A stretch of DNA of 64,000 nucleotides, taken from positions 13,358-77,357 of IMG/VR virus record IMGVR_UViG_3300021437_000010. One strand, written 5' to 3'. The notes below the pieces were generated by a model. The model was not told the origin of the DNA. It was given only the letters and a program-made list of their open reading frames with translations, and did not search any database. Source of the DNA: a virus. Below, one piece after another: positions 4,829 to 31,731 of this stretch (its first letter is position 1; every line of letters starts with the position of its first letter). The translations under genes were made by a program, and so were the position numbers.

Positions 4829-5015
4829 AATAACTCCTTTCAGTGCATGCATGCGTGCATGTACGTACTTAGCAATCATGGCATTACCTTCCTAGTGTGT
4901 CAACGGACAAGAGTTCCAAGCCGCTTAGCTCGCATTTGCTAGACCGAAAAGCCTAGCAAAAACCAACCAGTGACTACTTCCAATCGAGTCTGAATTGCTC
5001 GCTCGTATTCTGTTT

Positions 5016-5309
5016 CTAATCGCCATAAACATCTAAGTCATCTTCTGTAAGATTACTGGTAATGAATGCAGGCTGCTCAGGTACCTTTGCCTCAGGGGTA
5101 GAAACATCAGAGGCATTAACATGAGGAGGTAGTTTATCACCTCTCAATATGAGCCTTACGTAGTCAGCAGCATAGCTCACAATTAAATGGCTTTTAGGCT
5201 GGCTCTTCTCTCTGACATCTGTCTCTAATTGCTTCATCAGGTTGCTATCCTTGCGAATGGCAACCGTGATGTATTCCCTGTCGTTTGTGTTTCTTGGCAT
5301 AATAATCAC
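5016..5309 (-). CDS. ParR-like adaptor (ribbon-helix-helix)
   Basis: Small gene 1 nt downstream of parM; RHH-like YITVAIRKDSNLMKQL and acidic C-terminal tail. Confidence 0.6.
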   Translation of the reverse strand: MIIMPRNTNDREYITVAIRKDSNLMKQLETDVREKSQPKSHLIVSYAADYVRLILRGDKLPPHVNASDVSTPEAKVPEQPAFITSNLTEDDLDVYGD

Positions 5310-28829: not shown

Positions 28830-29012
28830 TTATCCTTTCTCCTCTTTTACAGTTTCCTGATTATTTGATGCAGCGTAGCTCTTTTCGACACGCCACATCA
28901 CCTCTTGATTAAACGAGCGTCGGTTAACTTTAGAACTCTCATGAAGTTTGTCAAGCAACACGAGAGGAACGTATATTGTAGCCCGTTTGTATTCCTCATG
29001 TTTACGTCTCAT
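28830..29012 (-). CDS. Arc family DNA-binding protein
   Basis: KRATIYVPLVLLDKLHESSKVNRRSFNQEVMWRV. Confidence 0.75.
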   Translation of the reverse strand: MRRKHEEYKRATIYVPLVLLDKLHESSKVNRRSFNQEVMWRVEKSYAASNNQETVKEEKG

Positions 29013-29177: not shown

Positions 29178-29213
29178 AAGAATGCCTCTATCGCTTCTGA
29201 TAGAGGCATTCTT
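29178..29213 (-). terminator. terminator-like hairpin after the 3' fragment of the BRO gene
   Basis: 15-bp perfect stem AAGAATGCCTCTATC/GATAGAGGCATTCTT, 2 nt beyond the TAA at 29216-29218. Confidence 0.7.
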
Positions 29214-29405
29214 TGTTATATGGTGTGATCTGCACCCCAGAACACTCTTTGTATAACTCTCTCTTTTCCAAGAATTGCAATGCCAAACTGCACTTTGTCC
29301 CCAACTTGCTTTTTATCTCTTGGCGGCGTAAAACCCCTTGCTTTAGCTATGGGGATATAAGCCGCTTCCTTGTTTGGGGCTTGGGAATTGGGGTCCCATA
29401 ACCGC

Positions 29406-29434
29406 TTGACGTATGTCCAATTTGATGCTACAAT
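29406..29434 (+). promoter_or_regulatory. sigma70-type promoter inside the IS left part
   Basis: TTGACG-17 bp-TACAAT with extended -10 TG; ATG only 6 nt downstream (leaderless). Confidence 0.7.
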
Positions 29435-29440
29435 AGACAT

Positions 29441-29593
29441 ATGAAAGACACTATGAAGTCGCTTAGCATCCGGCTTCCTGAATACCTGTTGGAACAAATA
29501 AGGGAAGCCGCAAAGCAGAATAACCGCTCTATCAACGGAGAGGTTCTCACCGCATTGGAAGAGCATGTCAAGAAACAAAAGAAAGGCAAATAG
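29441..29593 (+). CDS. Arc family DNA-binding protein (not in ORF track)
   Basis: Translated by hand: MKDTMKSLSIRLPEYLLEQIREAAKQNNRSINGEVLTALEEHVKKQKKGK. Confidence 0.8.
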   Translation: MKDTMKSLSIRLPEYLLEQIREAAKQNNRSINGEVLTALEEHVKKQKKGK

Positions 29594-29596
29594 GCA

Positions 29597-30769
29597 GTGA
29601 GTAAGCAGAAGCGGGCGTACAAGTATCGGTTCTATCCGACCGACGAGCAAAAGCGTATTCTTGCGCAAACGTTCGGATGTGTCCGCTATGTGTACAATTG
29701 GGGACTGCATACCCGCTCTGCTGCCTACAAGCTTGGACAAAGGCTCTACTACAACGATCTTGCTGCCATGTTGCCAGATCTCAAGCGTGAGTATCCTTGG
29801 CTTGGAGATGTCTCCAGTGTGCCTATTCAGCAGTCTCTTCGCCACTTGGATAAAGCCTTCAAGAACTTCTTCGAGGGACGCGCCAAGTACCCACACTTCA
29901 AGAAGAAGCAGAATGCCCAATCGGCTACGTACGCTGCGAATGCATTCAAGTGGGATGGGAAACATCTCACTCTTGCGAAAATGGATGCTCCTCTGGGTAT
30001 CCACTTGCACAGGAAGCTCCCCAAAGATGCAAAACCTAGCTCGGTCACTATCACCAAGGATTGCGCCAACCGCTATTTTGTGTCCATGCTGGTAGAGGAC
30101 AAAATCGAACATCTGCCAGTGGTCAATGCTATGGTTGGTCTGGACCTTGGTCTCAAATCGATGGTCATTCTCTCGACGGGTGAGGCTGTCGGCAATCCCA
30201 AATTCTACGCCCAAGATGAGAAGAGACTGGTAAAAGCTCAGAGACGGCACGCAAAAAAGAAGAAAGGTTCCAAGAACCGGAACAAGGCCCGTCTCAAAGT
30301 GGCCCGTGTTCACGCTCGTATTCAAGACAGAAGACGAGATTACCAGCACAAACTCAGCACACGCATAATTCGCGAAAACCAAGTGATTTGCGTGGAGAGT
30401 CTGGCCGTCAAGAACATGGTCAAGAACCACAAGCTTGCAAAGGCTATCAGCGATGTGGGATGGGGAGAGTTCGTTCGACAACTGGACTATAAATCCAAGT
30501 GGTATGGACGTACCCTGGTCAAGATTGACCGCTTCTTTCCCTCTAGCAAAACCTGCCATGACTGCAAGCATGTTCTCGACTCCTTAACCTTGGACGTGCG
30601 TGAATGGGCATGTCCCCAATGTGGCATTGTTCACGATCGTGACACTAATGCCGCGCTAAACATTCTGGCCGAGGGGCTCTCGGCGTCGGCCTGTGGAGGG
30701 AGTGTCAGACCCGTTCGGGCGAAAGCTCGTCGGGCAACCCCCGTTGAAGCAGGAAACTCTCGTTCGTGA
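29597..30769 (+). CDS. tnpB: TnpB RNA-guided endonuclease
   Basis: AYKYRFYPT HTH; RuvC GLDLGLK, ICVESL and HDRDTNAALNI; Zn finger CHDC/CPQC; all catalytic residues present. Confidence 0.95.
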   Translation: MSKQKRAYKYRFYPTDEQKRILAQTFGCVRYVYNWGLHTRSAAYKLGQRLYYNDLAAMLPDLKREYPWLGDVSSVPIQQSLRHLDKAFKNFFEGRAKYPHFKKKQNAQSATYAANAFKWDGKHLTLAKMDAPLGIHLHRKLPKDAKPSSVTITKDCANRYFVSMLVEDKIEHLPVVNAMVGLDLGLKSMVILSTGEAVGNPKFYAQDEKRLVKAQRRHAKKKKGSKNRNKARLKVARVHARIQDRRRDYQHKLSTRIIRENQVICVESLAVKNMVKNHKLAKAISDVGWGEFVRQLDYKSKWYGRTLVKIDRFFPSSKTCHDCKHVLDSLTLDVREWACPQCGIVHDRDTNAALNILAEGLSASACGGSVRPVRAKARRATPVEAGNSRS

Positions 30770-30830
30770 GAATGAGAAGCCCCTGCCCTTTAGGCATGGG
30801 GAGATGTCACAGAACTTAATATCCATAGGC
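30600..30830 (+). ncRNA. predicted TnpB omega/reRNA (5' boundary approximate) with flank-derived guide AGAACTTAATATCCATAGGC
   Basis: Established biology: reRNA derives from the tnpB 3' end and right end, and the guide is the sequence 3' of the right end (30811 onward). Confidence 0.55.
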
Positions 30831-31497
30831 TTACGCTTGCCCCTGGTGAAAGAGTTCTCAGGATACTTCTCATTTTCCAGTCCCTTAAGCAAAGCTTTCT
30901 TTTGACCGCTAGCATGCATCAGATCTTCGTAGAACTGAATCGCTATCCTCAAAAGCTCGGGGTCGTCAAGTAGGTCGAGATGAGAAATTTCGTTGTAGCC
31001 TGTTAAGCTTAGTTCGCCGTTTATGCTATACGAGCCAGTTTTGAAGATGGCTGGTAGAACTTCCCCGAAAACCCACTCACGAAACGGAATTGCATTTGGC
31101 TTGTCCGATCGTGCAACAAAATCCAGGTAATTTGGGAAGGAAATGCAGGTGCACATTTGCCGACCCCCTTTGGTAAGGACCTCGATTGAATCGACCCCCT
31201 TTGGGAATAGTAATCGTTTTACGACATCACTGGGATTGCCAATTTCCAAGATCTTGCAGGCGTCGGCAAGAATGGGCATTGGCTCGTTGCTAACCCAAAC
31301 GACACGAACGGGTTGACTGTTGAACTCAAAAAGTTGTAATTTATTATCCATGTAAGGTTAACTCCTTCTTGTTGTGTGTCTCCAAAGCAACTAACTTGTA
31401 AGACACATAGCACGTACACCTCTTGCGAAAGAAGTGCGAACGGTGGTTAGGGGTAGTCAGTGTGGGCTTGTCGAGGGCATTGGACTGACTACCCCTG

Positions 31498-31731
31498 CTA
31501 AGCGGCTTCCTTTGTCTCTTCCTTTGCTGGTTTCTTTTCTTCCATAGTCCATGGCTTCTCTTTTGCCTCTTTGATCCTATTGGCATCTACCACAGACATG
31601 TAAGCACGGTTATCAAACCTAAACCTATGTGTCTTTATGCCAAACCCTTTTATGTAGTAGTAGAGCGATGATCGCTTTATTCCTACATACGCAGCTACTT
31701 CTGCCAAGGTCATGTATTCTTTTCCCTCCAT
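31498..31731 (-). CDS. HTH_17/excisionase-like DNA-binding protein
   Basis: YMTLAEVAAYVGIKRSSLYYYI. Confidence 0.75.
   Translation of the reverse strand: MEGKEYMTLAEVAAYVGIKRSSLYYYIKGFGIKTHRFRFDNRAYMSVVDANRIKEAKEKPWTMEEKKPAKEETKEAA

Follow-up and report, generated by a model that had tools for sequence, protein, structure and literature searches.

In ISDra2, an IS200/IS605-family insertion sequence (IS) of Deinococcus radiodurans, the guide of the right-end element RNA (reRNA, or omegaRNA, obligate mobile element-guided activity RNA) consists of about 16 nt of the 3' flank, and the 5-nt motif to the left of the element is the transposon-associated motif (TAM) of the nuclease TnpB, which cuts the donor joint of TAM plus flank (PMC8612924). 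For TnpB2 of ISGst2 from Geobacillus stearothermophilus, the measured TAM is TTTAT (10.1101/2023.03.14.532601). The repressor Arc binds and represses native IS605-family promoters, including those of elements composed of arc and tnpB only (10.64898/2026.09.24.754181). Here we describe such an arc-tnpB element in a 64,000-nt stretch of viral DNA (the window), which covers bases 13358-77357 of the linear 94.5-kb IMG/VR virus record IMGVR_UViG_3300021437_000010 (CheckV completeness estimate 66%). Window positions 29317-30810 very probably represent a non-autonomous arc-tnpB-type IS200/IS605 insertion into a BRO-N gene, with a TnpB-omegaRNA complex that would act on TTTAT followed by the guide sequence. 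The anatomy of the element, its boundaries and its family membership can be read directly at the locus.

Removal of 29317-30810 in silico (1494 bp; 29316 joined to 30811 by script) leaves an uninterrupted minus-strand open reading frame (ORF) of 213 aa that runs from 31351 to the stop codon at 29216-29218, and the codon of Tyr181 is formed across the junction as T plus AT. Because the bases flanking both junctions differ (29316/29317 = T/C; 30810/30811 = C/A), the junction cannot slide and the insertion boundary is unambiguous. The 33-codon open continuation alone is not compelling, and it is the comparative evidence that carries the excision reading. A related 95-kb phage contig (L002, IMGVR_UViG_3300037424_002120) carries the uninterrupted junction, TTTAT followed at once by AGAACTTAAT, with no duplication: its positions 4832-4927 match window positions 30906..30811, and positions 4928-5034 match 29316..29211 directly thereafter, gapless and at 90.6-90.9% identity. 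Six BRO homologues obtained by protein search (P0002, P0003, P0004, P0006, P0007 and P0009; 212-215 aa) read ...KFYKKQVGDKVQFG... across the junction, several homologous proteins read ...RGKRKPM.IKFYKKQVGDKVQFGIAILGKERVIQ... through it, and homologue DNA (L166-L172) aligns over it without gaps. Judged by these alignments, the match of the restored BRO gene lies far beyond chance. A first-pass annotation of this DNA, made from the letters alone, had proposed the same deletion, Tyr codon and 213-aa BRO-N product, and had suggested looking for the empty allele in related phages; the deletion proved exact, and the empty allele in L002 has the same junction. The features of the interrupted gene are as follows.

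29317..30810, plus strand: arc-tnpB element of the IS200/IS605 family, 1494 bp, read as non-autonomous; exact excision restores BRO, and L002 has the empty site
30811..31351, minus strand: 5' part of the BRO-N gene (residues 1-180 and the first base of Tyr181), with Pfam Bro-N at residues 15-100 and homologues
29216..29316, minus strand: orphaned 3' part of the BRO-N gene (last two bases of Tyr181, 32 codons and stop)
30656..30810, minus strand: read-through tail of the truncated BRO ORF, 51 codons, antisense to the tnpB 3' end and the omegaRNA
29178..29213, no strand assigned: hairpin of 15-16 bp starting 2 nt past the BRO stop (DNA fold -15.8 kcal/mol, z -7.4)

The metagenomic origin of the assembly and the presence of IS relatives in bacterial metagenome-assembled genomes (MAGs) could point to a chimera of phage reads and a bacterial IS, which we regard as extremely improbable. 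An independent ENA assembly (L165, 13.6 kb; source ERZ27251982) shows this site filled in the same way, with both junctions present and 0 differences over the 1494 bp of the IS, while it departs from the window at 27 positions elsewhere; an assembly artefact is thereby excluded. The junctions also fall exactly at canonical IS605 ends and restore the reading frame. The truncated BRO product (P0001) is likewise present in this second assembly. As a separate observation, L165 and the window are identical over 4.6 kb including the IS, and the 27 differences are packed into 290 bp (31229-31516) covering the 5' end of BRO and its upstream region; this cluster looks like a local recombination patch.

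The Bro-N domain of the interrupted gene (residues 15-100) scores 42.3 bits in Pfam against a cut-off of 25.6, and relatives of the protein carry the JGI label prophage antirepressor-like. The insertion leaves this domain intact and replaces the conserved C-terminal 33 residues: the interrupted ORF (30656-31351) encodes 231 aa, of which 180 are BRO residues and 51 derive from the antisense of the IS right end, as had been proposed for the C-terminus of a putative antirepressor. The orphaned 3' part shares 88.6-90.9% amino-acid identity with L002 (tblastx) and is conserved in P0002, P0004 and P0007. The hairpin just past the BRO stop had been called a strong terminator. The hairpin itself was confirmed, but the terminator scan flagged the plus strand only, and on the minus strand, that of BRO, the T-run begins 8 nt past the stem; L002 bears a different hairpin at the equivalent position. 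The BRO gene appears dispensable for the phage, since L002 has the same gene broken by another element.

That other element (L002 4243-4831) is an ORF-less insert of 589 bp, different from the window IS and in the same orientation. It replaces 206 bp of coding sequence (equivalent to window 30907-31112), and its left end lies directly next to TTGAC (window 30902-30906), at a distance of 96 bp from the window insertion point. The ends form similar hairpins, GCTGCTGGGTTTTAACCCAGGCGG and GCTGCGGGGTTTTAACCCCAGCGG, and the right end reads ...GGAGTGTCAC; because of these end hairpins and this right-end sequence, the insert looks like a miniature element of the IS200/IS605 type. It is single-copy in its record and gave no match in Rfam, in phage records, in Pfam (its ORFs) or with the omegaRNA covariance model R1 described below. 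Two ORFs that distantly resemble TnpB (27% identity), with frames open for 370 and 517 aa, lie on the same contig (L002/G001) at G001:C1:20722-21267 and 30437-30931 (L178, L179).

Within the 1494 bp, the following features were found outside the coding region of tnpB.

29323..29365, plus strand: left-end two-tier hairpin, outer stem GCGGC/GCCGC and inner stem CCCC/GGGG (DNA fold)
29406..29434, plus strand: promoter TTGACG-17-TACAAT with TG extension (scan, 10/12 matches), ending 6 nt before the arc ATG
29441..29593, plus strand: arc, gene for a 50-aa ribbon-helix-helix repressor (Pfam Arc, 38.8 bits against a cut-off of 20.4)
30780..30801, plus strand: right-end hairpin (DNA fold), also the last helix (helix 7) of the omegaRNA
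30807..30810, plus strand: TCAC right-end cleavage motif, the shared end of six copies

Subterminal hairpins occur at both ends, with neither terminal inverted repeats nor a target-site duplication, in line with a tnpB-only, IS1341-like derivative of the IS200/IS605 family. The outer stem of the left end covaries among copies (GGCGGC/GCCGC, GACCTGT/ACAGGTC, CGCCCC/GGGGCG, GCGCCA/TGGCGC). On the right, the hairpin is followed by AGATGTCAC; the window copy, L005, L006, L007, L085 and L173 all finish in ...ATGTCAC and similarity stops right after it, so that TCAC, previously proposed as the right end, is now found at the exact end of six copies. More distant copies end in TCAA, and these have T instead of G just 5' of the hairpin foot (GAAG with TCAC; GAAT or GAGT with TCAA). 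In IS608, the Y1 transposase reads the cleavage site through hairpin-adjacent guide bases. If the present family behaves as IS608 does, the covariation at the right end would be the expected pattern of such reading. For the left end, a pairing rule between cleavage site and guide tetranucleotide taken from the IS608 rules fits the window copy (TTAT/AAAA), fails in L173 and L175, and was rejected.

The arc gene, its promoter and the absence of TnpA had been overlooked in the first pass. Homologues of Arc fall into 33 clusters with 62-97% identity. The order arc then tnpB, 3-4 nt downstream, recurs in L005, L085, L173, L175 and L176, with a TnpB of 391 aa on the contigs long enough to judge; L173 is a phage-like contig, and the arc-tnpB pair of L175/L176 adjoins a sigma-70 gene. 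In the window copy, L005, L173 and L175, arc lies within the element ends. A promoter-like site (TTGAC(A/G) or TCGACA), its spacing and its distance to the ATG are kept in 6/6 arc-bearing copies, the -35 being degraded to TCGACA in L174. The arc-tnpB transcript is probably leaderless, as the promoter ends only 6 nt before the arc ATG. A role for arc as the antitoxin of a toxin-antitoxin pair, suggested by weak FitA/CopG/ParD matches, was rejected in favour of an Arc transposon repressor, given the constant pairing with tnpB and the published data.

The spacer and -10 of the promoter are bracketed by an inverted repeat, TATGTC (29412-29417) and GACATA (29436-29441). At 29410-29443, and at the same place in L005, L085, L173 and L175, this repeat pairs the bases after the -35 with the arc start-codon region (CATnnnnnn...nnnnnnATG). 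Its symmetry is kept while its sequence varies by copy (TATGTC/GACATA, TGCAACC/GGTTGCA, TGTAGCT/AGCTACA). The repeat could be a candidate Arc operator that co-evolves with beta-strand residues; alternatively, in read-through transcripts it could fold into a hairpin and mask the start codon, as happens in IS200. The phage has an Arc-like gene of its own just downstream of BRO (28830-29012, minus strand), with 40% identity over 35 residues to the IS-borne Arc (29441-29593, plus strand; E 8e-8), and given this identity cross-talk between the two proteins is conceivable. The minus-strand neighbours of the locus comprise a ParB/methyltransferase fusion, small unknown ORFs, this Arc-like gene, the BRO-N gene and a helix-turn-helix gene. 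Transcripts started at the IS promoter would extend antisense into the 5' part of BRO, and those of BRO antisense into the omegaRNA.

The nuclease gene and the RNA scaffold are placed as follows.

29597..30769, plus strand: tnpB, predicted RNA-guided nuclease of 390 aa, with a GTG start 3 nt past the arc stop
30668..30810, plus strand: omegaRNA (reRNA) scaffold, 143 nt, overlapping the tnpB 3' end and the right end (39 pairs, 7 helices)

TnpB matches the Pfam families HTH_OrfB_IS605, OrfB_IS605 and Cas12f1-like_TNB with 74, 97.2 and 88.4 bits, each above its cut-off, and aligns end to end with the ISDra2 TnpB structures 8h1j/8exa (E 1.6e-77). The RuvC triad, already described as intact in the first pass, is complete in this alignment: D183/E267/D349 correspond to D191/E278/D361 of ISDra2. 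Both CxxC pairs of the zinc finger are present. Ser74 occupies the position of ISDra2 K76, where all members of the clade carry S, A or C.

The omegaRNA was delineated by covariation in 12 copies at 65-83% TnpB identity, with slid pairing partners and 500 shuffles as controls. In this alignment 96.6% of cells are paired (40-46% with slid partners) and 20/39 pairs show two-sided changes (2-5 when slid); 0/500 shuffles reach the observed values. All 39 pairs form in the window copy. Covariance model R1, derived from these 12 aligned copies, has a single hit in the window (150.6 bits) and finds an equivalent site 3' of tnpB in 14 more relatives (50-131 bits), including cyanobacterial and viral ones. 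A match to Rfam RAGATH-18, a family that corresponds to TnpB reRNA (PMC11061315), at 30690-30755 lies below threshold (26.3 vs 44.9 bits) and serves as a pointer only, not as evidence.

A further property of this coding region is an antisense frame, codon-for-codon with tnpB and arc, that stays open: it forms a 451-aa ORF in the window (29216-30571, minus strand) and reaches 585 aa in L007, where it spans tnpA too. Antisense stops would arise from sense TTA, CTA and TCA, which occur 0-4 times per ~390 codons in 12 copies and 10-27 times in each of the other two frames (compared were L005-L015, L085, L173 and L175 beside the window); these codons make up 3.0% of codons in flanking host genes and 3.6% in window ORFs. 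TCA is absent among the 23-30 Ser codons in 10/12 copies; apart from this, synonymous positions are free to diverge. Pfam gave no match for the antisense product. For cyanophage A-1(L)/Anabaena, an ORF named 'TnpB_rev' has been reported together with supporting peptides (10.64898/2026.02.14.705889).

The predicted target of the complex is given by the two flanks of the element.

29312..29316, plus strand: TTTAT, directly beside the left end and retained in the L002 empty site; predicted TAM and target motif of TnpA
30811..30830, plus strand: predicted guide AGAACTTAATATCCATAGGC, directly 3' of the right end; the first ~16 nt would be used by analogy with ISDra2

From 30811 the predicted guide thus reads AGAACTTAATATCCAT, plus AGGC if 20 nt are used. 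Both assignments, which agree with those made in the first pass, are predictions supported by homology to ISDra2 and ISGst2. The proposal of TTTAT as TAM is supported by its position at the left end (also in the empty site), by the same motif or TTAT beside other copies, by Ser74 at the K76 position and by the TAM of ISGst2. TTTAT flanks L005, from a Ktedonobacteraceae MAG, and L264, a 65%-identical copy in the cultured Alicyclobacillus phage KKP_3916, and TTAT flanks L012, L006 and L174, allowing a spacing shift of 1 nt; insertion 3' of such a conserved motif of 4-5 nt at the left end is typical of the IS200/IS605 family. ISDra2 TnpB becomes active on TTTAT when K76 is replaced by A, C or S (review PMC13639567).

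In the filled allele GTCAC, not TTTAT, stands before the guide match, and no second guide match was found in the window; the phage should for these reasons not target itself. Among five distinct uninterrupted alleles, only that of L002 keeps TTTAT; it has a 10-nt perfect TAM-proximal match and guide mismatches at positions 11, 13 and 17. The other four read TTTGT, CTTGT or TTTGA, the A-to-G change of the TTTGT type being a synonymous TAT-to-TAC change of Tyr181. TnpB is reported to be highly sensitive to TAM changes (10.1101/2023.03.14.532601), and by this analogy alleles with TTTGT, CTTGT or TTTGA should escape cutting. Its seed of ~12 bp is reportedly mismatch-sensitive as well (PMC13639567). 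Exact scans for the empty site gave 0 matches to a 25-mer in viral contigs and 0 to a 22-mer in metagenome contigs; a degenerate 20-mer gave 7 viral and 75 metagenome matches, of which only that in L002's own contig is a true BRO site. Cutting of IS-free alleles in sibling phages, as forecast in the first pass, is only partly supported and would be conditional: it would hold fully only for a perfect match, but no such allele was found, L002 has three mismatches and the others lack the TAM.

These alleles bear on whether the phage keeps the element as an RNA-guided weapon or homing device, which would cut the IS-free BRO gene of co-infecting competitors and either destroy them or copy in the element with flanking markers. 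We consider this distinctly unlikely. The retention of TTTAT with 10 perfectly matched nucleotides in L002 is compatible with it, as are the recurrence of element relatives in phage contigs and a cultured phage (L085, L173, L264) and the listing of homing into co-infecting phages as a possibility (PMC13565253). However, every insertion dictates its own guide through the site it enters, and the ancestral allele would match that guide without any selection; L002 departs from the guide at positions 11, 13 and 17, the seed is reported to tolerate mismatches poorly, and four other alleles lack a TAM to which TnpB is reported to be highly sensitive. The junction flanks are 90.6-90.9% identical between window and L002, against ~76% in the 5' part of BRO, and this could mark a co-conversion tract, but strong protein conservation of the BRO C-terminus explains it equally well. 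L002 is moreover no close sibling: proteins of adjacent genes are only ~50% identical between it and the window phage, and different genes follow BRO downstream. A wider picture, in which the BRO gene is a battleground of RNA-guided selfish elements, with two IS200/IS605-type elements 96 bp apart, TnpB-omegaRNA as a homing or exclusion nuclease against TTTAT alleles in co-infecting relatives and the synonymous TTTGT Tyr variants as escape, is in our view improbable too.

The insertion reading remains very probable, and under it the element appears to be non-autonomous, because no match to the Y1 transposase (PF01797) was obtained in the 94.5-kb record, in which controls matched. TnpA, the mark of the autonomous form, is absent from the element, and arc occupies the upstream position; tnpA stands in that position in 16 of the relatives scanned, and in L007 (75% identity, same GTCAC end) a decayed Y1 tnpA lies directly upstream. 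No second tnpB was found in the record, nor a near-identical IS copy in phage records. The nearest TnpBs (83-66% identity) belong to Ktedonobacteraceae and Chloroflexia MAGs and Tengunoibacter, and those below 58% mostly to cyanobacteria. A host lineage within Ktedonobacteria/Chloroflexota is likely, as the nearest copies lie there, and the likely history is insertion by a host TnpA during phage DNA replication in a Ktedonobacteria-like host.

Several points weigh against this account. The record is 66% complete (CheckV), so a TnpA elsewhere in the phage is possible; the element is single-copy in the 94.5-kb record; no near-identical donor was found, the best nucleotide identity being 81%, to L173; the TAM is not uniform, as the close copy L173 is flanked by ATCAA and L175/L176 by TCTAT; and a perfectly matching IS-free allele is absent from the searched viral and metagenome collections. 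The missing TnpA and the single copy would also suit an inert passenger, an isolated insertion left behind with no transposase to move it, whose TnpB and omegaRNA are silent or inactive. Arc would be expected to hold the promoter repressed, BRO transcription converges on the element, and some Arc-associated TnpBs were inactive in preprint assays (10.64898/2026.09.24.754181). We nevertheless consider such an inert state unlikely: both ORFs, the catalytic triad, the zinc finger, the 39 omegaRNA pairs, the end hairpins and the promoter are all intact, which are signs of a recent or maintained element.

By analogy with characterised relatives, from which transposition, Arc repression, RNA processing and cleavage are taken, the non-autonomous element would have inserted immediately 3' of TTTAT, without target duplication, into the dispensable antirepressor-like BRO-N gene of an uncultivated phage, presumably by means of a Y1 TnpA that the host supplied in trans and that acted on the hairpins of both ends. 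Its own strong promoter, which Arc would be expected to repress, would drive an arc-tnpB transcript, probably leaderless. Processing of the 3' portion of this transcript would yield the omegaRNA, with the phage flank AGAACTTAATATCCAT as its last ~16 nt. The TnpB-omegaRNA complex would then cut DNA with TTTAT plus the guide sequence, either the donor joint left by precise excision or an allele without the IS, and recombination with a filled copy would reinstate the element after the cut. The filled allele would be protected by GTCAC in place of the TAM.

Two further observations concern the relatives. L264 (OQ846916.1 45758-47070, Alicyclobacillus phage KKP_3916) is an unannotated IS relative, intergenic and on the opposite strand, with TTTAT as left flank, the same left-end hairpin, a right end reading ...GAATGTCAA and no arc; its tnpB frame is open for 395 aa and is annotated as a 306-aa hypothetical protein. 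In L012 and L017 (Ktedonobacteraceae), ~700-900 bp separate the tnpB body from the right-end/omegaRNA 3' segment downstream of it (L017 2561 then 3254; L012 2561 then 3447), which suggests an insertion between tnpB and its right end.

Arc-tnpB elements, the TTTAT TAM, phage-borne TnpB and homing into co-infecting phages have all been published, and the present element is an ordinary member of a well-studied family, the knowledge of which is unchanged by this finding. Its value lies in the locus: the filled site, empty site, TAM, guide, omegaRNA, Arc and promoter are all readable and cross-checkable from sequence, making it a textbook-clean natural case. For TnpB cataloguing or tests of Arc regulation, it supplies a predicted TnpB/omegaRNA/TAM triple from a lineage of which few samples exist (probably phages of Ktedonobacteria/Chloroflexota). 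The naturally occurring variants of the target (TTTAT with 3 guide mismatches; TTTGT, CTTGT and TTTGA) are useful for asking if phage-borne TnpB homes between phages.

With ISDra2 (TnpB structures 8H1J, 8EXA and 8BF8), the element shares a TnpB that aligns end to end with its D/E/D triad and zinc finger, an omegaRNA over the tnpB 3' end and right end, a 3'-flank guide, a 5-nt T-rich TAM at the left end, hairpins at both ends and the lack of a target duplication. ISDra2 differs in having tnpA and no arc, in its TAM (TTGAT vs TTTAT here) and in K76 where Ser74 stands here. ISGst2 TnpB2 (Meers et al., 10.1101/2023.03.14.532601) has TTTAT as its experimentally measured TAM, equal to the motif beside its native element, and the donor-joint homing model applies to both; it comes from another host phylum, and its chromosomal copies have TnpA available in the same genome.

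The arc-containing IS605 elements (Moon, Zedaveinyte, Wiegand and Sternberg; 10.64898/2026.09.24.754181) likewise hold a ribbon-helix-helix arc inside the IS beside tnpB and a strong native promoter. Many of them have arc-tnpA divergent from tnpB with a bidirectional promoter, whereas here arc and tnpB are co-directional, 3 nt apart, and served by one promoter. The tnpB of cyanophage A-1(L) (10.64898/2026.02.14.705889) and the copy in KKP_3916 (OQ846916) are, as here, IS605-family tnpB genes in a tailed phage and absent from close relatives, and the KKP_3916 copy also shares ~65% DNA identity, the left-end hairpin and the TTTAT flank. Neither has arc; the A-1(L) tnpB has identical counterparts in its host, whereas the searches for the window element yielded no near-identical donor. 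Free-standing phage homing endonucleases (T4 Seg/Mob; intronless homing) offer the idea of cutting the allele that lacks the nuclease gene in a co-infecting relative, into which the gene is then copied by repair (PMC13565253), and Table 1 of the same source lists 'non-restorative homing' into co-infecting phages. Those endonucleases recognise their site by protein, whereas the element described here is predicted to use an RNA guide and a TAM, and most of the natural alleles found lack that TAM.

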